This document shows, one piece after another, positions 444 through 24,400 of a stretch of DNA of 24,937 nt. The notes beneath the pieces are model-generated. The model had not been told where the DNA came from and did not search any database. It worked only from the letters and a program-made list of their open reading frames with translations. A program made the position numbers and the translations under genes. Position 1 is the stretch's first letter; every line of letters starts with the position of its first letter. The stretch is from a virus (Duplodnaviria > Caudoviricetes): the IMG/VR virus record IMGVR_UViG_3300035547_000480, positions 1-24,937 of that record; one strand, written 5' to 3'.

Positions 444-453
444 GAGGAATTTG

Positions 454-885: not shown

Positions 886-902
886 AAAAGGAGGCGGGAT
901 GA

Positions 903-1253: not shown

Positions 1254-1276
1254 CTATTTTGAAGGAGGAATAAAAT

Positions 1277-2158: not shown

Positions 2159-2173
2159 GGGGAGGGAAAGTAA

Positions 2174-2584: not shown

Positions 2585-2772
2585 GTGATGAGGAACTCTT
2601 TACCCGACTGATTTATTACGGCACAGCCCACCTTAACAGAAAAGAGGATGAGGTGTGGCTGATGCCCATTGGTTACCTGATGGATCTTTGGGAATGTCAT
2701 AAACAGTTTATTGGTATCTCAAAACCGAGAAAGGAATATTTTATTGATGATGTGATCCCAGAGTGGATCTAG
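2563..2772 (+). CDS. Tail assembly chaperone GT extension reached by -1 ribosomal frameshift (not in ORF track)
   Basis: -1 frame is open from the slippery site: RGGRVSDEELFTRLIYYGTAHLNRKEDEVWLMPIGYLMDLWECHKQFIGISKPRKEYFIDDVIPEWI* (TAG 2770-2772). Confidence 0.8.
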   Translation, partial: KKRGGRVSDEELFTRLIYYGTAHLNRKEDEVWLMPIGYLMDLWECHKQFIGISKPRKEYFIDDVIPEWI

Positions 2773-2918
2773 TTGTCATTTGGGTACGTAAATATACATT
2801 AATATACGAACAAAAATGACAAAGAGTAAAGTTTGACATTAGTGCTATAAATCATCATTATCTTAGCACGTTTGAAAAAATAGCATTAGAAACAAAACAA
2901 AAATTATTATATTACGTT

Positions 2919-2944
2919 GACGCCAGAACAGGTGTCTTTTTTTT
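2919..2944 (+). terminator. Intrinsic terminator-like hairpin immediately before tape measure gene
   Basis: GACGCC-agaaca-GGTGTC followed by T8. Confidence 0.55.
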
Positions 2945-2970
2945 ATTCTGGTAGAGAGGAGGTGGCAGAA

Positions 2971-5571: not shown

Positions 5572-5592
5572 AATAGAGAGGAGGGAGCCTAC

Positions 5593-6720: not shown

Positions 6721-6734
6721 AAGGAGGTCTTTAG

Positions 6735-7808
6735 ATGAGTTATGATAAAAATTTTAATAATGCTTTAGCCATCTGGACAGCCCTTGGTGGCAGAGGAGAA
6801 GTGGTCTTTGGTATTCCAACCCTTTCTTGGTCTAAGAAGCATTATAATGATTTTGGCTACACCCAATATGGCAGTGAAACCCGGATTGATGTGTATGATA
6901 ATGGCAATGCTCAAATCGCTGTTTATCAGGCAAAAACACCCTATATGTCTTATTTCAATTATACAACAGGTCAGTGGACTGTGGTGGATTGCTTTTATTG
7001 GAGCTATGGTGCACCGGTCATTTTATGGGCAGGTGGTGGTGTGTTTCTTGCCAAAATTACAGGTATGGCTAATATCATTGCTTCCTTTGATGGCATCACT
7101 TGGCATAATGCAGGCTACTGTGCCGGGGCCTATAATGCCATGACCTGCGGGGCTTATGATATGAATCAGACGAGTGGTATTGTCAGCTGGTGGTATTATA
7201 AGTCGCCGGTTTATTATAGCTTTGATTCATTAACCGAAAGAACAGCCTGGAATTTGGTTGGTTCGGATGGCACTTCAGTTCCAATTTTTAAATACCTAAC
7301 GACCCATAAAGGTTTATTCGTTGGTGTAGTTGGGGGAGATAAATCCATAGCCACTGCCAGTACAGCGAGTCCTGGATCCTGGATGACGACCATTCCAGAA
7401 GATGTGAATGAAACAAGTTATATGTATATTCGCTCAATCAATGATGTGCTTTTTGTAATGAAATATACTTACACCAACGTGGGCGGAGATTACACCTATT
7501 ATGTCACCCTATGCGTTTTAAATGATACAGCGACGGTGCTGACTGAAACGAACCTTAGCCGGGTGGGTGATCTTGCAGATAATCACAACCCAAATCCTCA
7601 GAATATCATCTGGATGGATGACTGGGGCAAGTTTGCTCTCTTTTCAGAAAGCATGCTCTATGTCTCTGATGATGGACTGACCTGGGAAGGCGTCGAACAA
7701 CCTGGATTTACAGTGAGTCAATACGACACTTTTGGTGGATCTATTTATGTTCCTGGGGACGGCTTTTATGTTAAAGCCAGCGGCTATGTTTATCATGCAC
7801 CTTATTAA
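6735..7808 (+). CDS. Putative receptor-binding/tail-tip protein, beta-propeller-like
   Basis: 357 aa, Tyr/Trp-rich, Asp-box-like motifs SFDGITW and SDDGLTW; last gene before the lysis cassette. Confidence 0.5.
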   Translation: MSYDKNFNNALAIWTALGGRGEVVFGIPTLSWSKKHYNDFGYTQYGSETRIDVYDNGNAQIAVYQAKTPYMSYFNYTTGQWTVVDCFYWSYGAPVILWAGGGVFLAKITGMANIIASFDGITWHNAGYCAGAYNAMTCGAYDMNQTSGIVSWWYYKSPVYYSFDSLTERTAWNLVGSDGTSVPIFKYLTTHKGLFVGVVGGDKSIATASTASPGSWMTTIPEDVNETSYMYIRSINDVLFVMKYTYTNVGGDYTYYVTLCVLNDTATVLTETNLSRVGDLADNHNPNPQNIIWMDDWGKFALFSESMLYVSDDGLTWEGVEQPGFTVSQYDTFGGSIYVPGDGFYVKASGYVYHAPY

Positions 7809-7835
7809 TCGATGAAAAGGACTAAGTAAAAAATC

Positions 7836-7871
7836 AAGACGCTTATGATACATCTCATGGGCGTCTTTTTT
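7836..7871 (+). terminator. Intrinsic terminator after tail genes
   Basis: AAGACGCTTATGA-tacatc-TCATGGGCGTCTT stem followed by T-run. Confidence 0.7.
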
Positions 7872-7904
7872 ATATACAAACTTAAATGAAAGCGAGGGAA
7901 AGCG

Positions 7905-8321
7905 ATGAAAGAAATATGGAATATTGTTCAAATGGTTTTTGCAGCTGTTGGCGGATGGTTGGGTTACTTTTTAGGGGGTTACGATGGGTTTTTATATGCG
8001 TTGATTGCCTTTGTGGTGGTTGATTATCTATTAGGCGTCATGTGCGCAGTGATTGAGAAACACCTATCCAGTGATATTGGCGCTCAAGGTATCTTTAAGA
8101 AAGTCGTTATTTTTTCTTTGGTAGGCGTGGCCCATATTATCGATCAAAACATTATCGGGGATGGCAGTGCTATTAGAACGGCGGTGATTTTCTTCTACTT
8201 ATCAAATGAAGGGATTAGTATTATTGAAAATGCCACAAGATTAGGATTGCCGGTGCCAGATAAATTGAAGGACATCCTAGAGCAGTTAAAGGATGGAGGC
8301 GATAAGGATGGCACTAAGTAA
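7905..8321 (+). CDS. Phage holin (toxin secretion/phage lysis holin family)
   Basis: Hydrophobic; GGWLGYFLGG..D, LSSDIG..GIFKK, FFYLSNEGISIIENA..LGLPVP family motifs. Confidence 0.92.
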   Translation: MKEIWNIVQMVFAAVGGWLGYFLGGYDGFLYALIAFVVVDYLLGVMCAVIEKHLSSDIGAQGIFKKVVIFSLVGVAHIIDQNIIGDGSAIRTAVIFFYLSNEGISIIENATRLGLPVPDKLKDILEQLKDGGDKDGTK

Positions 8322-9291
8322 CTTAAAAACAAAGTACATGACCAGAAATGATTGTTATACAGCTGGCAGAAAGATTAAACCTAAAGGAATTATGGTTCAT
8401 TCTACTGCCACACCGGGAGTGATGGCTGCTGATTGGCTTAGCCGGTGGAACAAATCCTACAAAGCAGGAGAGATTAAAAGACAGGTCTGCGTCCATGCAT
8501 TTCTGGATGACAAGGAAATCTGGCAGTACCTGCCCTGGAATCACAAGGGTTGGCATGCCGGAGGAGATGCGAATAATACCCACGTCGGTTTTGAGATATG
8601 CGAGCCGGGTGGGTTTTCTTATTCAGGTGGCACTACCATGGTGGGCTATGATGTGAAGAAAAATGAAGCCTACTTTAGAGCAGCTTGGCAGAATGCAGTG
8701 AACCTTTGTGTCCATCTCTGCAGAGAGTATGGTCTGACTGAGAAAGACATCATCAGCCATGCGGAAGGGAATAAGAAGGGAATCGCATCAAACCATTCAG
8801 ATGTGGGTCACTGGTTCCCAAAGCATGGAGAGAATATGGATACCTTTAGAGCTGCAGTAAAGAAGGCACTGGAGAATGTAGGCGAAGCCAAAGAGGTCTT
8901 TGAAGCTGGCAATATTGTAGAAATCAAAGCGTCTGCTAGAACCTATTATCCAGGCGGTCCAATCATTCCAAATTGGGTGAAATGGAACTATCATCTAATC
9001 ACCCAGGATGTGTTTAATGGTAAACCTGTGATCAAAGGCGGCAAGGAATGTGTTCTTCTTGGTAAAACCATCCTCAAAAGCACTATGGGTGAGAAGGCTG
9101 GCATTATGACTTGGGTTGATAAAGACAATCTTGAAATGGTCAGTGCTGGTGTGGAGGTTGAACCTGAGAAGGAATACAGTAAAAAATACTACCGTGTGCA
9201 GGCAGGTGCCTTCAGCGACAAGAAGAATGCAGAGGCCCTTATGGCCCGTCTTAAGAAGGCTGGATTTGATGCTTACATGAAGTATGATTAG
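8308..9291 (+). CDS. Endolysin: N-acetylmuramoyl-L-alanine amidase (Amidase_2-like) with C-terminal SPOR domain
   Basis: IMVHSTA, WHAG..N, GFEICE, ISHAE motifs; C-terminal YRVQAGAFSDKKNAEALMARLKKAGFDAY; GGAGG RBS favours ATG 8308. Confidence 0.9.
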   Translation: MALSNLKTKYMTRNDCYTAGRKIKPKGIMVHSTATPGVMAADWLSRWNKSYKAGEIKRQVCVHAFLDDKEIWQYLPWNHKGWHAGGDANNTHVGFEICEPGGFSYSGGTTMVGYDVKKNEAYFRAAWQNAVNLCVHLCREYGLTEKDIISHAEGNKKGIASNHSDVGHWFPKHGENMDTFRAAVKKALENVGEAKEVFEAGNIVEIKASARTYYPGGPIIPNWVKWNYHLITQDVFNGKPVIKGGKECVLLGKTILKSTMGEKAGIMTWVDKDNLEMVSAGVEVEPEKEYSKKYYRVQAGAFSDKKNAEALMARLKKAGFDAYMKYD

Positions 9292-9367: not shown

Positions 9368-9402
9368 ACTTGATAAATACTCTCTTTAGAGTGATATATG
9401 TA
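9368..9402 (+). promoter_or_regulatory. Putative promoter of recombinase cassette (ACTTG-N15-AGAGTGATATATG)
   Basis: TTGATA -35-like hexamer and TG-containing AT-rich -10-like region; the same ACTTG-N15-AGAG spacing recurs at 12908-12931. Confidence 0.4.
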
Positions 9403-9521
9403 ATACGCAACAAGGCTTGGGACCTTTGATTCGAGGGTTTTAAGCATTATTATTTTTGACCTTGGGGCTAAAGAAATTATGCCGCGTGATGCGAACCAAG
9501 GGATAAAAAGGAAAGGAGGAA

Positions 9522-11147
9522 ATGAGCATGAATTATGCAAGAGTTCAGGTTGAGCCTGTTCAGCAACCCAGCGTTTCTGTAATAAACAACGTCGATTTAA
9601 ACAGAAGCTTGGGCCAGGGAAAACCACATAAACCTAAAGTTGCATCATACTGCAGAGTGAGTTCTGAAGAAGAGTTACAGCTAGGATCCCTTGAAAACCA
9701 AATTATTCATTACACTAATTATATTAGATCGAAGACAGAATGGATTTATGCAGGGGTTTACTCTGATAAAGGAAAATCCGGAACGGATATGTCCAAGCGA
9801 ACTGGCTTTAATCGGATGATTAGAAAAGCAATGAATGGTGAAATTGACATTATTATCTGCAAGTCTATTTCTAGATTTGCAAGGAATGTAGTGGATACGA
9901 TGGATGTTGTAAGACAGCTTACTGAAAAGGGCGTCCAGGTCATCTTCGAAAAAGAGAGACTGAACACCAAAGACATAACCAGTTCACTACTAATAAAGAT
10001 TTTGGCCACATTTGCAGAAGAAGAGAGTCGAAGTACTTCAGAAAATATTGAATGGGCCTTAAGAAAAAGATTTGAAAGAGGTGAAGTTGTTGCTTCGCAA
10101 CTCTTTGGTTACAAGACAAAGAAAAACAAGAAGTGGGAGATTGTTGAAAAAGAAGCGGCCATAGTAAGAGAAGCCTATGCAATGTTTCTTTCTGGCGATA
10201 ATCTGACAGCCATAGCCCAGCATTTCATTCGTAGAGGATACAAGAAGCGCTCCGGAGAGATTGATTGGACATCTTCTAATATAAGCAGCTTTCTTACAAA
10301 CGAAAGATATTGTGGAGATGCTCTTAGCAGAAAAACATGTACTTTGGATTTTAGATCTCATAAGACAGTGGTTAACAGGGGACATAAGCCTCAGTATTAT
10401 GTTGAGGACCATCATGAAGGGATTGTGTCAAAAGAAGATTTTCAAAAGGTCCAAGAGATTATGAATGAGAACAAAACCACCCAATCAAATAAAGGAAGAT
10501 ACAAACGCTCCGCTATTACCAGCAGAATTGTCTGCGCCAGCTGTGGAAAGAACTATCATCGCTTCGGTCAGAAGGGGAAAATAACCAGATGGCGATGTTC
10601 GTCAAATGCAAAGAGCGGACTTTTATGCAAGGCTCAACCTATTGAGGAGACGAAGATAGAAGAGCTTCTCATAGAAGGTTTTGAAAAACGTTATGGCATG
10701 GATCAGAGAACAAATGATGGCTTGCTGATTAAACAGCTTATAAAAGAGTTATCAAGTGCAGAAACCGTAAGAGAAAGAGAGCAAAATCTGTTGAGGGTGG
10801 AGCTTGAAAAGTGCCTGATTGCTGAAAACAATGCTATCTTAAAAAATCTAGATGTAGAAGACATCAAGGCTAAAAGAAAAGAAGTCGAAGAAACAATCGC
10901 TGAAAAAACAAAGTTATGGGAGGCTTTTGACAAAGACCATGTCTTTAGAGAAGCATCCTTGAATAAGCTTAAAACCCTCAAGGGTTCAGATAAAGCCATT
11001 TATAAAATACTAGATATCTCTTTTATAAGAGCGTGGGTGATTCACATTACAGTGGAGTCACCTTTTTTATTTACCATTAAGTGGATTGATGGAGAAGAAA
11101 CCGTTGTCGGTCAATTTAGAGGAGGAATGTACTATGACTCAAAATAG
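9522..11147 (+). CDS. Large serine recombinase, type A
   Basis: YCRVSS catalytic motif, SISRFARN, recombinase domain (NERYCG...HEGIVS), CASC..C..C zinc ribbon; AAAGGAGG RBS. Confidence 0.93.
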   Translation: MSMNYARVQVEPVQQPSVSVINNVDLNRSLGQGKPHKPKVASYCRVSSEEELQLGSLENQIIHYTNYIRSKTEWIYAGVYSDKGKSGTDMSKRTGFNRMIRKAMNGEIDIIICKSISRFARNVVDTMDVVRQLTEKGVQVIFEKERLNTKDITSSLLIKILATFAEEESRSTSENIEWALRKRFERGEVVASQLFGYKTKKNKKWEIVEKEAAIVREAYAMFLSGDNLTAIAQHFIRRGYKKRSGEIDWTSSNISSFLTNERYCGDALSRKTCTLDFRSHKTVVNRGHKPQYYVEDHHEGIVSKEDFQKVQEIMNENKTTQSNKGRYKRSAITSRIVCASCGKNYHRFGQKGKITRWRCSSNAKSGLLCKAQPIEETKIEELLIEGFEKRYGMDQRTNDGLLIKQLIKELSSAETVREREQNLLRVELEKCLIAENNAILKNLDVEDIKAKRKEVEETIAEKTKLWEAFDKDHVFREASLNKLKTLKGSDKAIYKILDISFIRAWVIHITVESPFLFTIKWIDGEETVVGQFRGGMYYDSK

Positions 11148-12831
11148 AAACTCTTCAGCGATGAATCCTCGGGTTCGGGTAATACCTGCGAATATGAACA
11201 TGCAAAGAAGAGGGGAAGGAGAAGAAGAACCAAAGGTTAAAGTTGCAGCCTATGCAAGGGTGTCAACTCTTGAAGAAGAGCAACAGTCAAGTTATCAGCT
11301 TCAGGTTTCCTATTTTGAAGAATACATTGAAAGAAAACCGGACTGGGAACTTTATAAAGTGTATAGTGACGAGGGTGTAACAGGAACAAATACAAAGTAC
11401 CGAACCGGCTTTAACCAGATGATCAAGGATGCTAAAGAAGGGAAATTTGACTACATCATCACCAAATCCATCAGCCGATTTGCACGAAATACTTTAGACT
11501 GTCTGACTTATGTGAGGATGCTTAAAAACCTAGACAAACCTGTGGGAATTATATTCGATAAAGAGGGAATTAACACATTGGATTCCCAATCAGAAACGAT
11601 TCTGGTTGTCATCGCAAGCGTTATGGAGGAAGAAAGTAGAACCATAAGCGCCAATGTAAGCTGGGGTGTTCAGAAGAGATTTTCAAGAGGAATACCACAC
11701 ATACCGACAACCTATTTTCTCGGCTACGATGAGGATGAGGAAGGCAATCTAATCATCAATGAAGAAGAAGCCAAGATTGTAAGAAGAATATATCGAGAGT
11801 TTCTAAGCGGGAAAGGAACACCACTTATTGCCAAGGGGCTAACCAAGGATAAAGTAAAAACCGCTAGGGGAAACACCAAATGGACCAGCGATTCGGTTCT
11901 CAAGCTGATAAAAAATGAAAAATTCTGTGGTCATGCACTGTGCCAGAAGTCAGTTACTCTAGACCCTTTAACCCATAAGCGGGTGAGAAATAAAAATCAC
12001 AAACCGCAGTATTTTATTCGTAACAATCACCCGCCGATTATTTCAGAGGAAGATTGGAACGCGGCTCAGAAGGAGCTGGAACGTAGAAGCAGAATGCGTC
12101 ATGATCCAGATGGGAAGTACCGAAGATGTTATAGCAACACAGCTCCCTTTTCTAACATGCTATTTTGTGGGGAGTGTGGGGTTCCGGTGCACAGAAGACG
12201 CCTTACCTCAAAGAAAAATGGGCAATCTTATAAATTCACGGTATGGCAGTGCAGGGTATCAGCGATGAAAATGGAAGCGGATTATAAATGCCATACAAAG
12301 TATATATGGGAAGAAGTCATTGAAAGAGCTTACAATGAGATGCTTCTGAAAATGACAAAAGAAATGGATCAGATTCGAATGGAAGGTGAAGCGGCCATAA
12401 AAGAGGTCAGCCTATCTGAAGAAGAAAATGTACGATTAGAAGAAGTGGAAGAAATCATTGACAGAATCAGCGATCAAATTACTGAAATGTCTATGAGAGA
12501 GAGTATCACCAATGACCCAATTTATGACGCCACCCTTAGAAATCTCATTTACGAGTCTCAAATTTACCAACAAGAACATGAAAACCTCCTGAAGAATAAA
12601 GAAGAAAGTATCTTCATGAAGAAGAACCTGGATATTCTTATTGAGTATCTACAGGGGCTGCAAGACTTCGAAACCTTCGATGCAAAAATGTTTAGAGAGA
12701 CTGTTGAACGGGGTCTTATCTATGATGATTACCAAATGGAGTTTATCTTTAAATGTGGGGTCAAGCGAAAGGCCCTCGGCTGGAGGAGAGGAAAGGACCC
12801 GGTGGAACCGCTGAACTTAGATACTCTTTAA
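11134..12831 (+). CDS. Large serine recombinase, type B
   Basis: YARVST, SISRFARN, NEKFCG...HPPIIS, CGEC..C..C zinc ribbon, coiled-coil; GGAGG RBS supports ATG 11134 overlapping the upstream gene end. Confidence 0.93.
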   Translation: MTQNRNSSAMNPRVRVIPANMNMQRRGEGEEEPKVKVAAYARVSTLEEEQQSSYQLQVSYFEEYIERKPDWELYKVYSDEGVTGTNTKYRTGFNQMIKDAKEGKFDYIITKSISRFARNTLDCLTYVRMLKNLDKPVGIIFDKEGINTLDSQSETILVVIASVMEEESRTISANVSWGVQKRFSRGIPHIPTTYFLGYDEDEEGNLIINEEEAKIVRRIYREFLSGKGTPLIAKGLTKDKVKTARGNTKWTSDSVLKLIKNEKFCGHALCQKSVTLDPLTHKRVRNKNHKPQYFIRNNHPPIISEEDWNAAQKELERRSRMRHDPDGKYRRCYSNTAPFSNMLFCGECGVPVHRRRLTSKKNGQSYKFTVWQCRVSAMKMEADYKCHTKYIWEEVIERAYNEMLLKMTKEMDQIRMEGEAAIKEVSLSEEENVRLEEVEEIIDRISDQITEMSMRESITNDPIYDATLRNLIYESQIYQQEHENLLKNKEESIFMKKNLDILIEYLQGLQDFETFDAKMFRETVERGLIYDDYQMEFIFKCGVKRKALGWRRGKDPVEPLNLDTL

Positions 12832-12878
12832 AAAATAGATTCCGAAGCCGTAATAAAAACTGAATACCTAGTGTACTT

Positions 12879-12976
12879 AAAATACTCCTTTGACCATTAG
12901 AGATTGTACTTGCAATATGTTTCATACAGAGGGAACATACCAACAAGCGTAATCTTTATGAGGAAAGGAGTTTTTT
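12879..12976 (+). promoter_or_regulatory. Long imperfect hairpin pairing over the RBS of the double recombinase gene (copy 1)
   Basis: ACTCCTTT pairs with AAAGGAGT; inner arms AGATTGTACTTG/CAAGCGTAATCT and TATGTTTC/GGAACATA; homologous structure at 21308-21406. Confidence 0.65.
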
Positions 12977-12978
12977 AA

Positions 12979-15900
12979 ATGGACCAAAGAGATAAGGCCA
13001 TGTGGGTACACACACTGTGGGATCCGCTGGACGAGATGCATCAAAGTCCACTGAACAGCAAAAAAGAAGGTATTCGGGTTGCAGCTTACTGCAGAATTAG
13101 TAAAGGCAACACCAATTACAGATCCCTTGAAAATCAAGTGAGCTATTACAGCAACTATATCTACAATAAGCCAAATTGGAAATTTGTCGGAGTGTATATC
13201 GATAATCAAATATCCGGTGGAACCATCGAACACCGAAATGGATTCAAGCGAATGCTTCGTCATGCTAGGGAAGGAAAGATCGATTTAATTCTTACGAAGA
13301 GCATATCCAGATTTTCAAGAAACACAAAGGAAATCTTAGAAGTGCTTCAACAGTTAAAAGAAAGTGGCACAACTGTATTTTTTGAACGTGAAGGCGTGGA
13401 GGTTTCTAAGGGTTTGAGTTCACTGGTCTTAGAGACTCATGCAGCCATGGCCCAAGATTTCATCGAAGGGGTTTCAAACCTTGTGAAGTTTTCTTATCAG
13501 AAACGCCTGAATGAAGGACGGCCTTATTTTCATGAGATGTACGGCTATGATTTAGTTGAGCCAGGTGGCAAAGACATGGTGAAGATTAATGAAGAGGAAG
13601 CAGAAGTAGTTAGGTGGATTTTTAATCAGTTTATTGGTGGCGCCACTTATGCTGATATCACTAGAGAACTTATACATCGAGGAATTAAAACAAAAAAGGG
13701 AAATGATCGGTGGGCCCATACACAAATTAGAAAAATCATTAATGCGATAGCCTATACAGGAAACAAAAGGGCAAAGGCACAAACCAAGGACCTTTTTACA
13801 GGAAAGATTACTGGCAGCGGTCCTTACAAAGATCAATACATGATTGAAAATAGTCATCCGGCGATAATATCCATGGATGTATTTAATAGAGCTCAGGCGA
13901 GGGTTAAGAAAAACAAAAGAACTAAGAAGCAAATTAGAACGCCAATAAGTAACCCGCTGAAATATAGAGTATTTTGTGGTCGATGCGGAAAATTGGTGCG
14001 AAGAAAAAATGACTATAGATATGGATGTGCCTACACCAATGCCAGCGTGAAGCTTTGTGATTTAGAACTTATAAAAACTTATGACCTTGTTGCTATGGGG
14101 TTAAGAGGCTTATTCGAACGCATGCTGGGGTTAACCATTATTGCAACTAAAAACAGAAAAGACATCACATATGAAATGGTAGATCCCCTTGGCAGAAGTG
14201 AGAAGACTTTAAAAGAAGATTTTCGTCTGATGCTTAGGGATCTTGAGAGAATCCTCATCAGGGTCAACCAGAATGACCATTTTGAATTCCAGCGCCTAAA
14301 GTATTTTACTGACATCGAAATTGCCAAAAGGCAGAATCAGATAGAGCTGATTGAACAGCTAGAAGATGAATATTCCTCTTTTGAAGAAAAGGTTGGACGT
14401 ATTGAAGATGATAGAGAGTATCGAAATGATGCTCTTGTTTGGTTAAGGACCATCAGAGGCATAGACCATTTTATTAATTCTGCAACCATTGAAATGGTTA
14501 GAGCGTGGATGACAAAACTGATAATCTATTCAGGGTCAGCTTATGTTATCGAGTGGATTGATGAAAAAACAACGACGATTGGGCAAAAAGAAATTCCTGG
14601 TATCGTAGAAGCTGCAGAAAACAAACGATTAGAAAGGGAGAGCCGACTAAAGAAACAAGAGAAACCTTTATTAAATGATCTTATTAACTTTGAAGCTGCA
14701 GAAGATTCTTTAAAAGATAATGAAAATTCTAAAGCCCGGAGAAAGGAGGAACTCTTAGTGGAAGCAACAGCGATTACAGCAGACTCAAAGAGTCTGGCAA
14801 AAATAAACAACCAGAATATACCTATGCGCGACGTGGTTGTCCTTGAGCGTGGCCTAAGCATTAAAGACCTAGGCGATTTAAAGAAGAATATTCTTAAGAA
14901 CAGGATGAGTCAGCTCAAGCAGGAAGAAAAGAAGAAACTGAGAGTTGCAGCGTACTGCAGAGTATCAACAGAGATGGATGAGCAAAAGCTCTCCCTGCAA
15001 ACCCAGCTTGCATATTATAACTACAAAATACTTTCGAATCCTTTATGGGAGCTTGCCGGAATCTATGCAGATGAAGGGGTATCAGGAACTATAACCGAGC
15101 ATAGGGATGATTTTAATCGGATGATTGAAGACGCGAAAAAAGGTAAGATCGATATGATCATTACAAAATCCATCTCTCGATTCAGTAGGAATGTGGTTGA
15201 TGTTTTGGGAACATTAAAGACCCTCCATGAGTTAGAACCGCCTTGTGTCTGCTACTTTGAAAAAGAAAACTTGAAGAGCAATGATCCAAACTCTTCATTA
15301 ATTTTATCGCTAATGGCTACCGTCGCAGAAGAAGAGATTGTTTCCTTATCCAACAGCATCACCTGGGGCGTACAAAGTCTTGCTCAAAGAGGAACCATCA
15401 GTAGAAGGACAGATATGTATGGATACACCATTGATAAGAACAGGGAGTGGCACATTGTTGAGGAAGAGGCAGAAGCGGTTCGATTGATGTATCAATTATT
15501 CATAGAAGGTAAAAATATTTTTGAGATTGTTGAACATCTAAATGAGCTGGGGATAAAGAGTCCAAAGGGCAGTGACTATTGGAATTACAATACTATCCGA
15601 GAAATATTGAGAAATGAAAAGTATCTCGGTGATTATGAATTTCAAAAATACTACACGAAGGTTGCCGGGAGCGTACGAAAAGCCAATTATGGCCAGGTTC
15701 CTAAGTATTATATTGAGGAACATCATCAGGCCATCATTGATCGAGAGACATTTGAAAACGCACAAAAGGTTTTCGAAGATAGGAAAAGGAACCCTGTAAA
15801 GAATGAGAGGAAAGACGGGACAGCAGGTAGAGAAATATATTATAAGAAGTTCACTTGTGCTGAATGTGGCCATGTAGTAGCAAGATACAGAAGCACCACC

Positions 15901-16827
15901 TATTATTCCAGAGAAGGAAGTGCATGGCGATGTTTTAACTCTTTTCAAAAACTAGGATCGACATGTAATGTGTCCATATCATTTGACGAAAGGTATATGG
16001 ATTACTGCTTTGTAGATACACTAAGGAAAATCAAAACCAGCGAAGACTTTAGGCATCAGATAAAAGCGCATTTGAGAAAATTGGATTTAACGAAAAAAGA
16101 ACTGCAGCATAAAGAGCACCTTGAAAAGCAAATGGAAGCATTAAATCAAGAGCTTTATAAGGCGGTGGATACGGAGATCCAAAAGAACGGTAAAAATACA
16201 CAGCTGATTAACCAGATAACTGACGATATCATCCAATTGAGGGAGCAGCACTACAAGTACATTGAGCGATTAGAACAGTTAGAGGAGGATAAAGAGCGAT
16301 TGGAGAAACTTCTGAAATACTGCGAAAAGATGAAACCTTTCTCTTTAAAAACCTTTCACAATATGAGGCCACGAATCAAGCCGGGAGATAGTGTATATTC
16401 CAAGACCAACAGCGCAAGAGATGTTTCATACATGGACTTGGAAGGAGAAGACCACTTACCTGAAGAAGTTTTTATTGAGTATGTGTTGAGCGCAACCATT
16501 GATAAAGCAGGGGAAATCAAGTTTAAGTTTGCAGAGGGTGCAGAGTTTGGTTCGGGGTTAGACTATGAGAAGTACAAAGAGCGGTTTGAAAAACAAAAGA
16601 AGAAAATCCAAATGGAGGAGCTTTTAATCTCCGCTGAAGTACAAGAGGTGAAAGAGTTCTGTAAAGAATACAGAAAACCAAAGGAAATTCGAGAGCATTT
16701 GGGCATTAAGAGTGAAATTTCATATCGTAAAAGAATCCAGGAACCTCTTTATAAAGCGGGGAAGTTGATGACTAATGACGCAAAAGTAACTCAACTAAGA
16801 ATGTATAGATGGGCAGATGAGGAGTAG
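12979..16827 (+). CDS. Double (tandem-fused) large serine recombinase, 1282 aa, with C-terminal winged-helix-like domain
   Basis: Two full modules: YCRISK/SISRFSRN/CGRC and YCRVST/SISRFSRN/CAEC; C-terminal EFCKEYRKPKEIREHLG...EPLYKAGKL. Confidence 0.9.
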   Translation: MDQRDKAMWVHTLWDPLDEMHQSPLNSKKEGIRVAAYCRISKGNTNYRSLENQVSYYSNYIYNKPNWKFVGVYIDNQISGGTIEHRNGFKRMLRHAREGKIDLILTKSISRFSRNTKEILEVLQQLKESGTTVFFEREGVEVSKGLSSLVLETHAAMAQDFIEGVSNLVKFSYQKRLNEGRPYFHEMYGYDLVEPGGKDMVKINEEEAEVVRWIFNQFIGGATYADITRELIHRGIKTKKGNDRWAHTQIRKIINAIAYTGNKRAKAQTKDLFTGKITGSGPYKDQYMIENSHPAIISMDVFNRAQARVKKNKRTKKQIRTPISNPLKYRVFCGRCGKLVRRKNDYRYGCAYTNASVKLCDLELIKTYDLVAMGLRGLFERMLGLTIIATKNRKDITYEMVDPLGRSEKTLKEDFRLMLRDLERILIRVNQNDHFEFQRLKYFTDIEIAKRQNQIELIEQLEDEYSSFEEKVGRIEDDREYRNDALVWLRTIRGIDHFINSATIEMVRAWMTKLIIYSGSAYVIEWIDEKTTTIGQKEIPGIVEAAENKRLERESRLKKQEKPLLNDLINFEAAEDSLKDNENSKARRKEELLVEATAITADSKSLAKINNQNIPMRDVVVLERGLSIKDLGDLKKNILKNRMSQLKQEEKKKLRVAAYCRVSTEMDEQKLSLQTQLAYYNYKILSNPLWELAGIYADEGVSGTITEHRDDFNRMIEDAKKGKIDMIITKSISRFSRNVVDVLGTLKTLHELEPPCVCYFEKENLKSNDPNSSLILSLMATVAEEEIVSLSNSITWGVQSLAQRGTISRRTDMYGYTIDKNREWHIVEEEAEAVRLMYQLFIEGKNIFEIVEHLNELGIKSPKGSDYWNYNTIREILRNEKYLGDYEFQKYYTKVAGSVRKANYGQVPKYYIEEHHQAIIDRETFENAQKVFEDRKRNPVKNERKDGTAGREIYYKKFTCAECGHVVARYRSTTYYSREGSAWRCFNSFQKLGSTCNVSISFDERYMDYCFVDTLRKIKTSEDFRHQIKAHLRKLDLTKKELQHKEHLEKQMEALNQELYKAVDTEIQKNGKNTQLINQITDDIIQLREQHYKYIERLEQLEEDKERLEKLLKYCEKMKPFSLKTFHNMRPRIKPGDSVYSKTNSARDVSYMDLEGEDHLPEEVFIEYVLSATIDKAGEIKFKFAEGAEFGSGLDYEKYKERFEKQKKKIQMEELLISAEVQEVKEFCKEYRKPKEIREHLGIKSEISYRKRIQEPLYKAGKLMTNDAKVTQLRMYRWADEE

Positions 16828-16860
16828 GTGTGTAAAGAAAACTGATGTCTTTTTTTAGCT

Positions 16861-16902
16861 CCTAAGCTATCACCTAAGATGCCACCTAAGCCATCACCTA
16901 AG
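16861..16902. repeat. Four CCTAAG cores at exact 12-bp period
   Basis: CCTAAG at 16861, 16873, 16885, 16897 (CCTAAGctatca/CCTAAGatgcca/CCTAAGccatca/CCTAAG). Confidence 0.85.
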
Positions 16903-17007
16903 TTCTATTTTTTAATAATGTCACGTTAATCTCCATATATGAAGAAAAACATGCCAAAATTAAAACATCCATTTTCCACTTCACAAAACTGAATAAAGAA
17001 GATTATT

Positions 17008-17035
17008 CCCCAGTGACCCATAGGCCTGGGGTTTT
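17008..17035 (+). terminator. Possible plus-strand terminator
   Basis: CCCCAG-N12-CTGGGG followed by TTTT. Confidence 0.4.
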
Positions 17036-17046
17036 ATCAGCAATAG

Positions 17047-17095
17047 AAAAACCCACTGAGTTGGCAGATAACAATTATCTACCACTTGGTGGGTT
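17047..17095 (-). terminator. Terminator of the XRE-IrrE-PIN operon (possibly bidirectional)
   Basis: AACCCAC..TGGCAGATAA / TTATCTACCA..GTGGGTT long stem with A5 on the left (U-tract on minus strand), just past the stop at 17100. Confidence 0.65.
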
Positions 17096-17099
17096 ATTT

Positions 17100-17801
17100 T
17101 TATTTGAAATATGATTCATACAAACTGTCCATACTCGAGGAGAAATCTCCCCAGCCAGGGTTTGTACTTTTTTCCCGATCGGTCAGATAGTACTGGTATT
17201 TATAGAGCATTTTCATGGCTGTTTTATCAGCCAGATCATTTCTGTATAGATAGTAAATCAGCTCATACATCTTGATGGCTTGTACATTATCTAAGCCTGT
17301 AGACCACTCTTCTGATTTTTCAATGAGTTGAATGGCATTATTATCATTAGCTGCGAAGTAGAGGAGACCTTTGACAGCAATATAAGACAATGATTTCACT
17401 TCTCCACGATCATCCTTGTTATCAAGCATCGGATCGTATTTAGTGAGAGAAGCAATTTTTGATTCAATGGTATCTCTTAAAATTTTTTCAACTTCTGTTA
17501 GAGATGAATCCTTGTGAATAATGATCTCCGGTGGAATGCTATCCCTTTTCGCATCTACATAATTTTGGGGAGAGATTCCAATCAGTTCATCATATACTGC
17601 TTCGTGAATAGCCAGATTTGGAAAGACGCTAAAAATGGGGTCTAGCCAGATCTCTTTAAATTGTTCAAATCTGATGCCTTTCTTAGTGATTGGCCTTCTA
17701 TCTGGAGCAATAAGAAAATTCGCATCTAAAGTGATGATTTGTTCCGGATCTTCAATTATACTTATCAATGCTGGGTTTGGATGGGTTAGATTAATCTTCA
17801 T
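17100..17801 (-). CDS. Putative PIN-like domain protein (candidate toxin/nuclease)
   Basis: ITLDANFLI, AIHEAVYDEL, DDRGEVKSLSY, FAANDNNA acidic pattern resembles PIN-fold proteins; GGGGAGG RBS favours ATG at 17801 (233 aa), overlapping the peptidase stop. Confidence 0.6.
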   Translation of the reverse strand: MKINLTHPNPALISIIEDPEQIITLDANFLIAPDRRPITKKGIRFEQFKEIWLDPIFSVFPNLAIHEAVYDELIGISPQNYVDAKRDSIPPEIIIHKDSSLTEVEKILRDTIESKIASLTKYDPMLDNKDDRGEVKSLSYIAVKGLLYFAANDNNAIQLIEKSEEWSTGLDNVQAIKMYELIYYLYRNDLADKTAMKMLYKYQYYLTDREKSTNPGWGDFSSSMDSLYESYFK

Positions 17802-18678
17802 CATCATCCTCCCCACTGAAGAAAGCATCAAGCTCATCTATGTCTTCTTGAGAGACTTTTATCTCATAACCAAATTCATCAGGTGTTCTATTGAAAAGGC
17901 TTAGGGTTTCTGCAAATTTATCTTCATCTATGAGATTGTCTTCAAAGTTTCTAATGATGATCTCGATTTCATTAGGGGAAGTACCAATATTTTTAGTTGG
18001 CTGATTCAATTTAAGAAACTCGTCTTTATTAGTGGCCAGACCTGCTTTTCCGTATTCACCTTGAAGATCTCGTTCATCAATAGAGTATAATTCTGCATAC
18101 TGCTCTGATGAAATTGCACCTATCTCGTGCAGTCTTCTGACAAGTGAACGGTATGGGAGCCACCATGTGCAGTGGAGTCTAGCGATAAATCTCAACAGTG
18201 CTTTGTGTTGGATTTTCTCAAGAGAAGATGTCTTAAACTCATCAAGAACAATACTTTCCAGTACTGTTTCAGGTAACAAAAACTCTGCTGCAAAACGGTT
18301 AGCTTTTACTTCAATAAGGCTATTATCTTCATCTTCCGGTCTGCTCAGATGTGAGCCGGATTTCGTGTAATAGTGATATAGCTCATGAGCAATAGCAAAG
18401 ATTTGTTTATCGTAATAATCTGCAGTATTTAGCCCGATGAAAGTTAGTTTTTTATCGCCTTCTTCGGAATACATTATAGCAGCAGAAAAAGCTGGTCTAT
18501 CACCTTCAGATTCGATGGGATATTCCAGCAACATGATGTCTAGTCTATCAAGAATTGTAAAGATGTCATTTGCAATAGGTGTTTCGCCTACGAAGCCTAA
18601 AGAAAGGCGTTTTTCTCCGGCAAGTTTGCGAATTTCATCTACTTGTACTTCATTAAGCGTGATTGGATTCATTTTCAA
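17791..18678 (-). CDS. ImmA/IrrE family metallo-endopeptidase
   Basis: FAIAHELYH (HExxH) and EVKANRFAAEFLLP motifs; start TTG 18678 or ATG 18672. Confidence 0.9.
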   Translation of the reverse strand: MKMNPITLNEVQVDEIRKLAGEKRLSLGFVGETPIANDIFTILDRLDIMLLEYPIESEGDRPAFSAAIMYSEEGDKKLTFIGLNTADYYDKQIFAIAHELYHYYTKSGSHLSRPEDEDNSLIEVKANRFAAEFLLPETVLESIVLDEFKTSSLEKIQHKALLRFIARLHCTWWLPYRSLVRRLHEIGAISSEQYAELYSIDERDLQGEYGKAGLATNKDEFLKLNQPTKNIGTSPNEIEIIIRNFEDNLIDEDKFAETLSLFNRTPDEFGYEIKVSQEDIDELDAFFSGEDDDED

Positions 18679-19015
18679 ATGAGCTCCTTAATTTGATTTG
18701 CTGTCTTAGGGACAACATCATAGTGAATAGTTTTTCTACGCCTTCTTTTTCACTATCGCTTAATGCTTCACTTCGAAGAGCAACAAAAGAGTTCGTTCGT
18801 TCTTTCTCCACAAACATTTCTGTAAGATCAAAACCTAAAACATTTGATAAAGCTTCAAACTGTACAATAGATGGAGTGAAGTCTTCTCTTTCAATGCGGC
18901 CTATCATAATTCTGTTTATACCGGTTAAATTACCGAGTTCTTCTTTTGTAAATCCTTTTGATTCTCTAAGGTTTCTAACTGTTTCAGCTAATTTTTTAGT
19001 TGATAAAGTTTTCAT
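18653..19015 (-). CDS. XRE-family helix-turn-helix transcriptional regulator
   Basis: VRNLRESKGFTKEELGNLTGINRIMIGRIEREDFTPS HTH_3 pattern; GAAAGGAGG RBS. Confidence 0.9.
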   Translation of the reverse strand: MKTLSTKKLAETVRNLRESKGFTKEELGNLTGINRIMIGRIEREDFTPSIVQFEALSNVLGFDLTEMFVEKERTNSFVALRSEALSDSEKEGVEKLFTMMLSLRQQIKLRSSFENESNHA

Positions 19016-19626: not shown

Positions 19627-19682
19627 ACGAACTTCTTTATATATTTAGAATCAATTGCTTACGTATGCCGTAATTCGAACTA
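19596..19682 (-). ncRNA. Candidate ~87-nt small RNA
   Basis: Lies between a perfect TTGACA-N17-TATAAT promoter and an intrinsic terminator (AGCTC-T-ATCCA-aaag-TGGAT-G-GAGC-U6); no ORF or RBS inside. Confidence 0.6.
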
Positions 19683-19692
19683 GTTCGAATTA
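19671..19692. promoter_or_regulatory. Perfect 22-bp palindrome TAATTCGAACTAGTTCGAATTA (candidate operator)
   Basis: Identical to its own reverse complement; overlaps the -10 and predicted start site of the minus-strand promoter. Confidence 0.7.
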
Positions 19693-19717
19693 TATAGGAG
19701 TTATCGTTCAATGTCAA
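19689..19717 (-). promoter_or_regulatory. Perfect consensus SigA promoter
   Basis: Minus strand TTGACA (19717-19712), 17-nt spacer, TATAAT (19694-19689). Confidence 0.8.
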
Positions 19718-19962: not shown

Positions 19963-20067
19963 GCTGTTAAAAACATGAATATTACCGAGAAATGAGGCTA
20001 AAACCAACTTTTTTCTTGACATTTTTCTATGTATTGGATTTCCTTTTTATCCTTCGAGAATCAAGGC

Positions 20068-21264
20068 GTAATTTCCAGCATTGCTGAAGAAGAGTCCCGC
20101 ACAATAAGTGCTAATGTCAGCTGGGGGGTTCAGAAAAGATTCTCGCAAGGACAGCCTCATATTCCTACCACATACTTTTTAGGATATGACGAGGATGAAG
20201 AGGGGAATCTCATCATCAATGAAGATGAAGCTAAAACGGTGAGAAGGATCTTTCGAGAGTTTATCTCAGGAAAAGGGTCGGTCCAGATAGCTAACGGGTT
20301 GACGAAAGATAAAGTGAAAACAGCAAGGGATAATACAAAATGGACCAGTGATTCTGTTTTAAAAATACTTCGCAACGAAAAATTCTGCGGCCATGCATTA
20401 TGTCAGAAATCAGTGACCCTGGACCCTCTAACCCACAAACGGGTCAGAAATAAAAATCATAAGCCGCAGTACTTTATACGGAACAACCACCCCGCAATCA
20501 TCTCTGAAGAAGACTGGAATTATGTACAAAAGGAACTGGATAGAAGACGAAAAATGAAGCATGATCCTGACGGCAAATACCATAGAACCTATAGCGGAAA
20601 AGCACCATTTTCAAATATGCTTTACTGTGGAGAGTGTGGCATGCCGGTTCATAGAAGGCGCATAACATCAAAGCGAGATGGGAAGCCCTACAAGTTTACC
20701 GTTTGGCACTGCAGACTGGCGGCGCAAAAAGTAGAAGCTGACTTTGACTGCCATTCAAAGTATGTTTGGGAAGAGGTTATTGAAACAGCCTACAATGAAA
20801 TGCTTCTGAAAATGACTGAAGAAATTGATCTCATAAGAGCTGAGGGGGAAGCGGCCATTGAGGATGTGAGCTTAACATACGACGAAAAAGAAAGGCTCAA
20901 AGAACTTGAAGAAATCATCGATCGAATCAATGATCGCATAAGTGAAATGGCCATGAGGGAAAGTGTCACGAATGATCCCATCTATGATGCAACCCTTAGA
21001 AATATGATCTATGAATCACAAATCTACCAGCAGGAGCATGAAGCGCTTGTCAAAAGCCAGGACGAAGAAATCTACATGAGGCAGAACCTAGAAGCCCTGA
21101 TAACATATCTTGAAAGCCAAAGTAGCTTTGAAACCTTTGATGCAGCAGAATTTAAAAAGCTTGTCGAAAGAGGTATTCTCCACAAAGACTATGAGATTGA
21201 GTTTATCTTTAAATGCGGAGTCATAAGAACGGCTCAAGGCTGGAGACGTGGGAAGAACGAGTAG
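20068..21264 (+). pseudogene. 5'-truncated paralog of type B serine recombinase (catalytic domain missing)
   Basis: From VISSIAEEESRTISANVSWGVQKRFS onward it aligns closely with 11134-12831; no YxRVS or SRFARN motif; upstream ATG 20029 has no RBS and a non-homologous first ~13 codons. Confidence 0.8.
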
Positions 21265-21307
21265 TGGTGGACTTTATAGACCACTTTATAGATTTATCTA
21301 ATTAAAT

Positions 21308-21406
21308 AAAATACTCCTTTACCTTATGGAGATTGTACTTGCAATAGTTTGACACCAATGCAAACATACAAGCAAGCGCAATATTTCAGAGGAAAGGAGT
21401 TTTTTT
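21308..21406 (+). promoter_or_regulatory. RBS-sequestering hairpin upstream of double recombinase (copy 2)
   Basis: ACTCCTTT/AAAGGAGT, ATTGTACTTGC/GCAAGCGCAAT, GTTTG/CAAAC; homologous to 12879-12976. Confidence 0.65.
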
Positions 21407-21407
21407 A

Positions 21408-24400
21408 ATGGACCAAATAGATAAAAGTTTATGGATCAATAAATTATGGGATCCTTTAGAAAAGATAGAGGACAGTCCACTTCACAGTAAGCGAGAGGGA
21501 ATCAAGGTAGCTGCCTATTGTAGAGTGAGTCTTGATTCACTGGGGCTGTCCCACTCATTGGAAAGCCAGGTAAGCCACTACACCCATGTGATTAATAGTA
21601 GGGATAATTGGACCTTTGTAGGTATTTATTTCGACAATCTGGTTACCGGGAGAAAAGCATCATTAAGACGAGGCTTCACTCGGATGCTCAGACACTGTGA
21701 AGAGCACAGAATTGACCTAATCTTAGTCAAAAATGTATCCCGGTTTTCAAGAAACACGAAAGAGCTTATTGAAGTCATTGAACGATTAAAAGAAATAAAC
21801 GTAGCGGTATATTTTGAAGCGGAAAATATTACGAGCACTAGGAGTGAAACAGCCTATCTTCTAAAAACCTATGCCAGCATTGCTCAAGGGGAAATTGAGG
21901 CAACTTCCCAGGCGATAGAGTGGGGACATGAAAAACGAATGATGAAAGGCAAGGTTAATATCGGACACACATACGGCTATGATAAAACAAAAGTTGGTAA
22001 TGAGACCGTCATTACAATCAATGAAGAGCAAGCACAAGTTGTTAGACAGATTTATCAAATGCATCTTGATGGTATGAGTAATAATGCCATTGCAGGTGAA
22101 TTAACCATTAGAGGAGTCAGGACCTACTTTGGGAAGGAACTGTGGGGACCGAAGACGATAGCATCAATCTTATCAAACATTGCCTATACAGGAAACGCAA
22201 AGACCAGGAAACTTACAAGAGATTTGATGAGCAACAAAAGACGGTCATCAGAAGGGATACGGGATCAATATTTAATTGAGAACCACCATCCAGCGATTAT
22301 AAGTCAGGAAGTCTTTGACCGGGTACAAGAAGAGAGAAACAAGAACAAAAGGGAATCTAAACCTCAACAAATTAGACCCAATCCGTTATCAAGGCGGATT
22401 CACTGTGGCAACTGCGGTCAGAATTTTAGAAGAAATAGAATTAAACCATGGGAGTATTTCAGGTGCGTCTCGGCAATAACAAACAAAAACCTCTGCAGCT
22501 CACCGACTATACGGGAAGACCTCATGGTTGAAATAATGCTAAAAGCTTTTACAGTACGCTTTGATACTCAAGATCCAAAATTGATTAAAATGCTACAAAG
22601 AATGTTGATTAGGATAAACCAGAATGACTACTTTGAGTTCCATCGCCTAAAAGCCTTGACTCAGATGCAATTGGCTAAAAGGTTGAGAGATATTCAATTT
22701 ACAGATGAGGACATTAATCAGCTGGAAAAGGATTATGAGAAATTTGAGAACCGGCTTGTAGAAATAGAAGATGATAGGGATTATCGGCTCGGTTCCATAA
22801 AATGGCTTGAGAATGTTAAAACATTTGAAGAATTTGAAGGGAAAGCCACTATTGAATACTTACGGGCTTGGATTCTTTCTTTGGACATTTATTCAAAAGA
22901 TGATTATAAAATTTACTGGATCGATGGGAAAGAAACAGAGGTTGGAAGCTGCAAACCCATAAAACCAAACATAGAAGAGTCGTTATCAGAGTTGCATCCA
23001 AATGGGGATTTAGTGGTTCAAAAAGACACTAATTTTGAATTGATGACAAACATCCAAATCGCCTCGGAGAAAGGGGGTGATCAAAATTACGTTGATGAGG
23101 AGGACGGAAAGATGTTAGCAGAAAGAAGACTTGAACCGAATTTGATGGTTAAAAATATACAAAAACAATTGAGCAACTCTGTGATAATGCGGACGAGTGT
23201 ACCGGTAGTGAGAGATAAGAAATTAAAAGTGGCTGCATATGTCCGTGTTTCTACAGAACTGGAGCAGCAAAAAACAAGTATTAAGACCCAATACTCATAT
23301 TATCTGTACCTTATCCTCAAGGACCCACGCTACATTTTAGCCGATATCTATATAGATGATGGCAAAAGCGGAAGAACGACTGAAGGAAGGCCCGAGTTCA
23401 AACGCATGATGGAAGATTGCAAAACAGGTAGAGTGGACCTGATCATTACAAAATCGCTATCTCGATTTGCCAGAAATACTGTCGATACATTAACCTACTT
23501 AAACATGTTGAAAAGTCTGGATCCGCCAGTTGACGTTTGGTTCGAGCGCGAGAACTTAAGGGCGCTTGATGAAAAGAGCAATGTCCTGATCAATCTGTTA
23601 TCCGCACTGGGGCAGGAGGAAAGTGTCAACATCGGTGAATCCATTGCCTGGGGCAGAAGAAGCCTAGCCCAAAGAGGGGTTGTAAGACCGGCGGTTCAAG
23701 GCTACGGCTATCAATACGATAAAAATAAAGAGTGGATAATTAACGATGAAGAAGCTGAAGTTGTGCAGAGGATCTATGATGAGTATGAAAAAGGAAAGAC
23801 AATAAGGGCTATAAGAGATTTACTCATATCTGAATCAGTTCCAACTCCCGGAGGACAAGAAGCATGGTGCGACACCACCATTGGAAGGATATTGCGCTCT
23901 GAAATTTATCGGGGCAATTACATTTATCAGAGATTTCATTCGGGACTTACTCTGGCAAATGAACGGGTGAAGAATACAGGGGAGCTGCCCATGTATTTCA
24001 TTGAGAATCACCACAAAGCAATTATTGGAGAAGAGCAGTGGGAAAGGGTTCAAAAATTAACTGAAGCAAATGAAAAGAAACGTAAAAAGAGTCAAAAGAA
24101 ATATCCGGATGACCATGGTAAGAATGAATCTTTTACAAAGAAATTTTACTGCGGAAAATGTGGAAGTTTAGTCGGATATAGTAGAGCCATCAACAGACAG
24201 AAGAAAAATTATGAGGTGAGGTGGTGGTGCTGCTATCAATCATCGAGAGGGCACTGTGATTCCATGTACATGAAGCAGGAGTACGTTGAAGAAAACTTCT
24301 CTCAGCTTATGATGGACATAAAATTCAACCCTGCATTTAATGAGTACCTTGATGCCTTTATTGAAGACTTGCGAATAAAGCCAGAGGAAGAAAAGCAAAG

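Follow-up and report, generated by a model that had tools for sequence, protein, structure and literature searches.

Results

A double recombinase gene in a prophage cassette

The 24,937-base virus record IMGVR_UViG_3300035547_000480 (Duplodnaviria; Caudoviricetes), called the window throughout, contains the right part of a siphophage prophage followed by three genes for large serine recombinases (LSRs). Two of these, recA and recB (A and B hereafter), encode proteins of one recombinase module each, while the third, F1, encodes a single chain with two modules and belongs to a family of fused proteins referred to here as F. Behind F1 lie cargo genes, a short conserved end sequence (the end arm), the 3′ part of another recB (B′) and a second fused gene, F2 (Table 1).

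Pfam profiles detect two Resolvase and two Recombinase (PF07508) stretches in F1. The N-module (about amino acids (aa) 1–540) has its catalytic serine at Ser41 (codon at 13099) within YCRIS 37–41, and the C-module (about aa 651–1185) at Ser663 (codon at 14965) within YCRVS 659–663; SRFSRN occurs at 110 and 733. The sets of four cysteines, C333/336/350/360 and C960/963/985/996, are invariant in the family and both present, though the zinc-ribbon model scores below its cut-off (20 bits) in F1, and a domain scan of the window proteins gave no DUF4368 match at E 0.01. A disordered linker (about aa 563–650) separates the modules, and an extension of about 95 aa follows the C-module. Each chain therefore has, twice, the features by which an LSR is recognized: the YxRxS serine and SRxxR arginines, a Recombinase domain, and a four-cysteine zinc ribbon with an inserted coiled coil. 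It departs from the canonical one-module protein of about 400–650 aa acting as a homotetramer in having two modules per chain of 1070–1350 aa.

An AlphaFold model of F1 residues 23–1214 (mean pLDDT 79) predicts two LSR-like halves with helical hairpins and about 90 low-confidence residues between them. Its best Foldseek matches, 9dxd/9y66 (E 1e-17), are serine integrase–DNA complexes, and the SPbeta, phiC31 and Bxb1 integrases were matched as well. F2, read for 1176 aa up to the window end, has an F1-like domain set (41% identity in the N-module, 36% in the C-module), and a RAW...WID...G tail is common to recA and the N-modules of F1 and F2. A sequence-only reading of the window had described two complete LSR modules in one reading frame, a paralog of like architecture at 21408 and a recA-like tail on the N-module; all three descriptions agree with the domain, motif and cysteine data. 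That reading had not picked up B′ behind the end arm, the ribosome site within the linker or the C-terminal extension.

The F1 linker is crossed without gaps by single contigs from other runs (X4, 9497–15660; X5, 11314–15748) and from another study (X17, 9479–17106), and contigs of other runs likewise cross the joint at 20068. Contigs of an RNA run (X19) span pieces of A, B, F1, B′ and F2 and are not informative on transcription; runs with a small share were left out.

Table 1. Features of the window (positions in the 24,937-base record).
Feature	Positions	Strand	Remarks
Right part of siphophage prophage	114–9291	+	Tail genes; tape measure 2917–5571, holin 7905–8321, amidase 8293–9291
Inverted pair of T-rich 9-bp motif	9453–9509		39 bp apart, over recA leader; right half with partner (P′) arm geometry, 11-bp type
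recA (A)	9522–11147	+	Single-module LSR, A type, 541 aa
recB (B)	11131–12831	+	Single-module LSR, B type, 566 aa from ATG; start overlaps recA end
B–F spacer	12832–12978	+	Conserved with spacer preceding F2; within 70% identical repeat 11641–13101 versus 20101–21530
F1	12979–16827	+	Fused double recombinase, 1282 aa
F1 linker ribosome site	14742–14760	+	Shine–Dalgarno and in-frame GTG (codon 594), 61 codons upstream of C catalytic domain
Unit 1 cargo	17100–19015	-	Helix-turn-helix (HTH) regulator, IrrE/M78 peptidase, 245-aa protein; PADLOC PDC-M69 match (B and C models)
End arm, right end of element	20044–20068	+	25-bp P-type arm: T-rich 9-bp motif, 8 bp, TCA-type 5-mer, final GGCG; junction directly after 20068
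B′	20069–21264	+	3′ part of older element's recB, from about codon 160, lacking the catalytic domain
F2	21408–24937	+	Fused double recombinase of the older unit, incomplete at window end; ribosome site with ATG in linker, 23097–23114

The fusion is a conserved family

A homolog search for F gave 219 matches among 7543 candidates; among the best 120, 80 are at least 1050 aa long and 31–58% identical, with sources that include Bacillus, Virgibacillus, Clostridium, Heliorestis and Proteiniclasticum. An alignment was made of 69 of 81 proteins, with near-duplicates and N-truncated or very divergent rows (e.g. P0073, P0074, P0088, P0105) omitted; neither serine, neither SRF-RN arginine and none of the eight cysteines varies in it. 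For a comparison of fused and split forms free of bias, loci were fetched with the N-module tail alone. Of the 67 distinct N-tails obtained, 59 continue into a C catalytic domain; another 3 are cut by the contig end, and 5 terminate before that domain. A library of clusters at 50% identity gave 31 matches at E 1e-20 or better: 19 of at least 1066 aa, 4 shorter ones that have the C catalytic domain, 2 that end in the linker and 6 small fragments. The fusion is thus not a one-off loss of a stop codon, as had been argued from the window, and its homologs are mostly fused rather than split at the linker.

F is present in 6 of 269 genomes of one Bacillaceae-level family and, among 590 matching INPHARED phages, in one, PV036459, recorded as Ca. 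Heliusvirales. The fusion occurs in isolate genomes too; none of 471 matching plasmid records covers 80% of F. An apparent natural split gene (L097) was rejected as a one-base frameshift in a run of A, and a search for N-tail relatives of 315–1005 aa found two among 718 candidates, both partial proteins on 4–5 kb contigs. At another locus (L272:1895-9863) two full-length F genes stand back to back, separated by neither an arm nor a B fragment. The C-terminal extension (16540–16824 in F1) carries Pfam PF21247 in F2-type homologs, and its profile also matches AlbA_2-type cargo proteins encoded behind F.

Purifying selection acts on both catalytic domains: the ratio of nonsynonymous to synonymous rates (dN/dS) is 0–0.08 in the N catalytic domain and 0.05–0.17 in the C catalytic domain (dS defined in 11 and 10 of 12 pairs, respectively), and neither module is unconstrained. 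The linker gives 0.10–0.40 and is free of stops. In the same pairs A and B, far more conserved overall, are 80–98% identical against 46–92% for F, while the catalytic domains of F are constrained as strongly as those of A and B.

Origin of the fusion

A careful phylogeny (LG+G4) of 43 cores, each comprising the catalytic and recombinase domains and drawn from a set of 133, places A and the N-module of F in one clade with support of 98/97, and larger fast trees concur on this pairing, which the sequence-only reading had anticipated. A single clade of the N- and C-modules is rejected by the approximately unbiased (AU) test (p 0.017), and with it an internal duplication as the origin of F. In two deep fused proteins the C-module is nearest to a B-class single gene (57% and 47%). 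The expected likeness of the C-module to recB stands in so far as it is B-class, but it is not the exclusive sister of recB. As the N-module groups with A, the two modules do not group together and the C-module is B-class, F is, on these phylogenies, an old single-chain fusion of an A-type and a B-class LSR gene. A broken A-type gene and two unfused B-class genes, together with the three-gene cargo of the window, occur in a metagenome-assembled genome labelled Sumerlaeota (L074:5046-11800), which may be misbinned or an unfused relative.

The A-B-F cassette, its cargo and arrays

The order A-B-F was found in 25 loci, two of them repeats of others, and always behind the phage amidase where that DNA is covered; the A-B-(A′B′) cassette read from the window thus recurs in relatives. 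It places four modules in three genes at the right end of Bacillota siphophage prophages, where most related phages have an unfused pair or triplet instead. One genome (G005) has two A-B-F cassettes 25 kb apart. The cargo behind F is variable, and 19 of 52 cargo proteins match PADLOC models (AbiD, AbiE, AbiQ, IetAS, PDC-S11, -S15 and -M69), a count made without a control set. Operons of the type at 17100–19015 (HTH regulator, M78 peptidase and an orphan protein; candidate defence system PDC-M69) recur as cargo in L074, L081 and L083.

Behind the cargo there is often a headless recombinase gene and a further F, giving arrays that run from a headless B or F through F and defence cargo to the end arm; on one contig five F genes or their remnants were counted besides a C-only piece. 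B′ is 98% identical to the full recB of locus L092 and 76% to the window's own recB. Contig X17 (23.9 kb) carries the same A-B-F1 and end arm with another cargo and another downstream partner, and its match to the window ends at 20072, while run X11 contains an intact recB allele at exactly the window joint and also a join of end arm and partner arm.

Two other origins for the arrays were considered and rejected. An integron-like insertion of a unit made of the 3′ part of B, F and cargo into recB would rebuild a hybrid B; the full recB of the window is of F1 type throughout (99% to L081), and B′ has F2-type sequence starting at the joint. Formation of a mini-circle followed by homologous recombination is inconsistent with the end arm, which follows the upstream F and not the downstream B. 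In L198/L199 (G254:C2, about 11,000–25,800) a 14-kb satellite-like element interrupts recB; it carries a tyrosine integrase, a primase and a capsid-like gene, and its insertion point is the GxFFE motif targeted by some end arms; the recB 5′ half in G254 was rejected as proof of insertion, being cut by this unrelated tyrosine-integrase element.

The end arm and its joints

Headless genes begin sharply behind the conserved 25-bp end arm. A profile of this arm gave 58 distinct hits in all loci examined: 20 join recB, 5 the N-module and 6 the C-module of F, 6 comM, 5 an inverted partner arm, and 16 others capsule genes (4), phage genes or a promoter (4), host or unknown partners (3), contig ends (2) or likely false matches (3). 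None lies in the recA frame. The hits judged false (L141, L126, L283) and the two at contig ends are kept in the 58 and left out of the 53 used for target analysis. Loose ends at position 9385 of the window are ambiguous with promoter variants and were not counted, and a contig ending exactly at the arm (G022:C4) was dropped as a case of live switching, as an overlapping contig (C5) runs on into comM.

The T-rich 9-mer of the end arm lies 17–25 bp from the joint, similar to the zinc-domain motif of LI attP at 16–24 bp (PMC3783163). The same end arm joins different codons, at homologous motifs of B, the N- and C-modules of F and comM, with a preference that differs by arm type; GAY precedes the joint in 9 of 12 alpha-type targets, against a background of 0.033. 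Units of F1 type are joined to recB in the window, to a capsule gene in L244, to a host gene in L265/L266 and to a partner arm in L090, and these may be deletion end points, not insertions.

Across 37 units of F plus arm, which are not independent, arm identity follows the DNA-binding domain of the N-module (partial rho 0.50) more closely than that of the C-module (0.25). In one recombinant lineage the N-module and arm were kept and the C-module changed, and the end arm co-varies with the N-module while A and B change little.

Two-arm sites and the capsule locus

Five joints run into an inverted arm with the same 9-mer. The halves are symmetric about the last two bases of the arm and differ in their spacers (8 versus 11 bp), so that, judged from sequence, end arm and partner arm together are an asymmetric attP-like site. 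An asymmetric site of the kind proposed earlier from the window thus exists, and its left arm tracks the N-module. Four of the five joints continue into the intact first genes of a capsule cluster, and the fifth reaches a contig end. On the other side, the host-side flank is readable in 9 elements, and in 8 of these an intact final capsule gene together with a conserved hairpin precedes the start of the phage. In five such loci, 2–6 two-arm units are repeated in tandem in the spacer before the first variable capsule gene; their right halves show the 11-bp geometry, and their centre, CG or GG, is identical to the final two bases of the end arms. Tandem two-arm repeats of 120–220 bp, in up to six copies, stand between the conserved and variable capsule parts in L310, L317, L318 and 25 other genomes, with or without the phage; Rfam over seven left-site loci found only the epsC RNA, upstream, and no family for the repeats.

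A strict left-site pattern was matched by 28 of 269 genomes, all six F-positive ones among them, and by no control. Several F-free genomes with the pattern carry relics (hairpin and repressor-like gene; arm joined to comM); in F-free relatives comM is intact and lies no more than about 15 kb beyond the capsule cluster. Capsule clusters in these Bacillaceae are regularly followed by a pair of genes, one comM-like and one for a Y1 (IS200-like) transposase, at times in two copies (L337, L340, L344, L346). The identified targets all lie downstream of the left site in locus order: partner arm, capsule genes, phage left genes, terminase, tail, recA promoter, recB, F and comM. The 5′ halves of cut recB or F genes were not found in five genomes or records, nor was the comM 5′ half in G076. 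A search for an inverted end arm at phage left ends gave nothing above noise, and the partner-arm pattern in viral contigs gave two already known loci and one chance hit in an unrelated virus.

In a 63.7-kb record whose two ends both lie within the capsid gene, the arm runs into ugd; 7 kb of capsule genes and the left end of the phage come next, as expected of a circle or tandem. In G003:C1 the capsid gene is cut at both contig ends (L202, L149), and the contig closes into a circle or tandem through it; the cutting sequence may resemble the ends of group II introns. At L008:7330-7360 a partner-type arm occupies the end position behind F, flanked on either side by capsule and cargo genes of the opposite strand, an arrangement that may be the product of an inversion.

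Other features of the window

The inverted motif pair over the recA leader is likely an operator or accessory site, and the conserved B–F spacer likely holds F's own promoter. Directly behind F1, CCTAAG is repeated four times with a 12-bp period (16861–16902), followed by a 62-bp imperfect inverted repeat (16907–16968). In the 1-kb gene-free stretch before the end arm, a 22-bp perfect palindrome overlaps a minus-strand sigma-70 promoter (12/12 consensus; 19671–19717).

Discussion

Proposed mechanism and its alternatives

We regard it as moderately probable that F and the free A and B proteins form the integration machinery of a Bacillota prophage family, in which heteromeric integration would be combined with relaxed-target deletion from a fixed 25-bp end. 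The two modules of F would occupy the two unlike arms of the element site, with the N-module on the end arm, and A and B the other site, giving four modules for four half-sites. An incoming circle would integrate at the left site of a capsule locus or of a resident element, which would bring the end arm beside the old partner arm. This two-arm junction would then recombine with a degenerate downstream site, so that the former capsule genes and the greater part of the former prophage would be deleted. Where the end point falls in recB or F, the old F, with its likely promoter, and its defence cargo would be spared, and repeated rounds would stack such units. The window would represent one such round, a new unit of A, B, F1, cargo and end joined into the recB of an older unit. 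One fixed end joined to loosely matched targets would account for the stacks of leftover anti-virus genes behind the cassette; the missing 5′ halves of targets point to deletion, and deletions that begin precisely at the end arm and stop at recombinase-type motifs suggest that the recombinase itself makes them. A more far-reaching version, which we consider tentative and rather doubtful, has A, B and both halves of F acting as a fully heteromeric tetramer with one module per half-site and no matched target core; it would move capsule genes, prophage and defence cassette together, replace the old capsule genes by directed deletion and stack defence genes in an integron-like manner, amounting to a phage-driven serotype switch.

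The degenerate, type-specific targets resemble those of multi-targeting LSRs (PMC10083194), comM/yifB is a reported LSR target (PMC11551731), and two cassettes can stand 25 kb apart in one genome (G005). These observations would also fit plain multi-target integration, in which the whole phage enters degenerate sites by one crossover and the left duplicate is later lost by homologous recombination between prophages, with no capsule exchange or second deletion needed. That is unlikely, given that no 5′ half of a cut gene lies beside the left arm in five genomes or records (nor that of comM in G076), that the left flanks are intact genes, and that joints in host-side capsule genes and comM could not be collapsed by phage–phage homology. 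The higher conservation of A and B, the inverted motif pair over the recA leader and the unfused pair or triplet of most related phages would suit a CcrAB-like integrase pair of A and B alone, with F as an accessory for excision, concatemer resolution or control of directionality and the joints as by-products of A and B. This we think quite improbable, since the end arm co-varies with the N-module of F while A and B change little, and since the catalytic domains of F are as constrained as theirs.

The fusion itself might be a translational convenience, the modules being separate subunits, the C-module coming mainly from an internal start and the covalent link being dispensable. A Shine–Dalgarno sequence with an in-frame start occurs in many linkers, where codon shuffling predicts 2.4 and synonymous resampling 5.1; counted by lineage it is present in about 7 of 17, against 0.9 and 1.7 expected. 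The linker is variable in length (56–120 aa) and disordered, and the 5 of 67 N-tails that end before the C domain point the same way. Nevertheless, 10 of the 17 lineages mostly lack the site under the rule used, no clean natural split was found (the one checked at base level being a one-base frameshift), the two N-tail relatives of intermediate length are partial proteins on short contigs, and the linker evolves under constraint (dN/dS 0.10–0.40) without stops, all of which makes a dispensable link very improbable. We take the ribosome site for a surviving trace of the fusion of A- and B-class genes, and a free C-module may be made besides full-length F. The chain itself may act as the covalently fixed heterodimer that the sequence-only reading proposed. 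An artefact of assembly or gene calling, or a recent chance loss of a stop codon, has nothing in its favour except the metagenomic origin of the record; it is refuted by the contigs of other runs and studies that cross the linker, and by the fusion in isolate genomes and in 19 clusters at 50% identity.

Several observations weigh against the combined integration and deletion that we favour. The ribosome site is found in 28 of 44 linkers, 36–63 codons before the C catalytic domain, so that a free C-module may also be made, and the AlphaFold model (pTM 0.51) leaves the relative position of the N- and C-modules unfixed. An exclusive clade of B and the C-module appears in 0 of 200 bootstrap trees (AU p 0.069, not rejected), the C-module sitting with two outgroup second genes. 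Retrieval centred on F inflates the proportion of joints that fall in recombinase genes, and common descent links many of the joints. Among 33 joints for which an intact homolog exists, just 1 has the same two bases at the end of the arm and in the target, and the first two bases after the joint vary from one joint to the next. Ordinary serine integrases require a matched core; the chemistry of the joints is therefore unexplained, or the core lies beside the position where we placed it and is variable. The left flank in G005 is not a capsule gene. The strict left-site pattern was built from four of the six F-positive genomes, leaving only two independent tests, and left-site repeats occur in 22 genomes that lack F, 21 of them also lacking the strict end-arm pattern, so these repeats may be a host feature. 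No pair of genomes from before and after such an event was seen.

Serine integrases are core tools of genome engineering, and the fact that one protein reads all four half-sites is a standing limit. A single chain of two unlike modules, an asymmetric site and co-varying pairs of arm and module would offer a scaffold for asymmetric-site integrases, and the division of labour in paired and triplet recombinases (CcrAB, the triplets carried by integrative and conjugative elements (ICEs)) becomes directly testable. Should the enzyme itself produce the joints that lack a matched core, the known chemistry of serine recombinases would be widened. Partner-type arms occur upstream of variable capsule genes, and the set might also swap host capsule genes; if true, temperate phages would have a route to accumulate defence genes and exchange capsule loci in Bacillota.

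Comparison with known systems

One parallel is CcrA/CcrB of the staphylococcal cassette chromosome (SCC) element SCCmec, where two different LSR subunits are also encoded side by side. SCC elements form tandem, att-flanked cassettes that are rich in defence genes and moved in trans (PMC11470126), which resembles the arrays described here, and recombination of attP with attP has been reported for CcrA/B (PMC3783163). All modules studied here score 55–227 bits against NCBIfam CcrA/B/C cut-offs of 700–900, and therefore fall outside the Ccr families. Unlike the SCCmec system, the present one has four modules, two of them fused, on a siphophage, and its targets lie in capsule genes, recombinase genes and comM; rlmH was not assigned to any of the 58 end-arm hits, the three host or unknown partners being unnamed. 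Gene order and arm asymmetry suggest that unlike subunits may act together here. Older units are cut at variable points, whereas SCCmec units are kept whole.

In Streptococcus ICEs of the Tn5252/Tn1549 families, three adjacent LSR genes form position-specific clades that arose by duplication, and some of these elements insert into traG of another element (PMC4701971). Those triplets have one module per gene, reside on ICEs and insert site-specifically with repeats of 2–8 bp, whereas here three genes carry four modules, the third gene is a fusion, the carrier is a siphophage and the end joins many targets. Multi-targeting LSRs (the TndX/TnpX-like clade, Cp36) combine a fixed donor arm and a degenerate motif with many target genes (PMC10083194), a combination that the joints described here may share. 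They differ from F in being one-module proteins, most of them with the DUF4368 domain, and F joints lack the 5′ halves of their targets. A later candidate filter of 400–650 aa in that study would have kept such fusions out of those later candidates.

Canonical phage serine integrases (LI/A118, SPbeta, Bxb1, phiC31) share with F the domain order, the fold and a 9-bp T-rich motif at P-arm distance. They act as homotetramers of one module on one attB with a matched 2-bp core, whereas the sequences analysed here suggest four different modules, asymmetric arms and no constant core. Genomic islands of the ICESt1 type reportedly evolve by accretion and deletion; the deletions indicated here differ in having an exact starting point, the end arm, and end points at recombinase-type motifs. 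Phage–ICE tandems likewise build up at one locus and then lose parts (PMC13651849). The available text of the Heliusvirales paper mentions only a common ‘DNA invertase’ (PMC11283538), and the full-text literature that was accessible, mostly excluding subscription papers and supplements, contained no natural two-module LSR, no such arrays and no link to capsule genes. The suggestion that F could be a distinct recombinase class holds for architecture and behaviour and not for chemistry: F is a known kind of enzyme with a previously undescribed architecture and behaviour.

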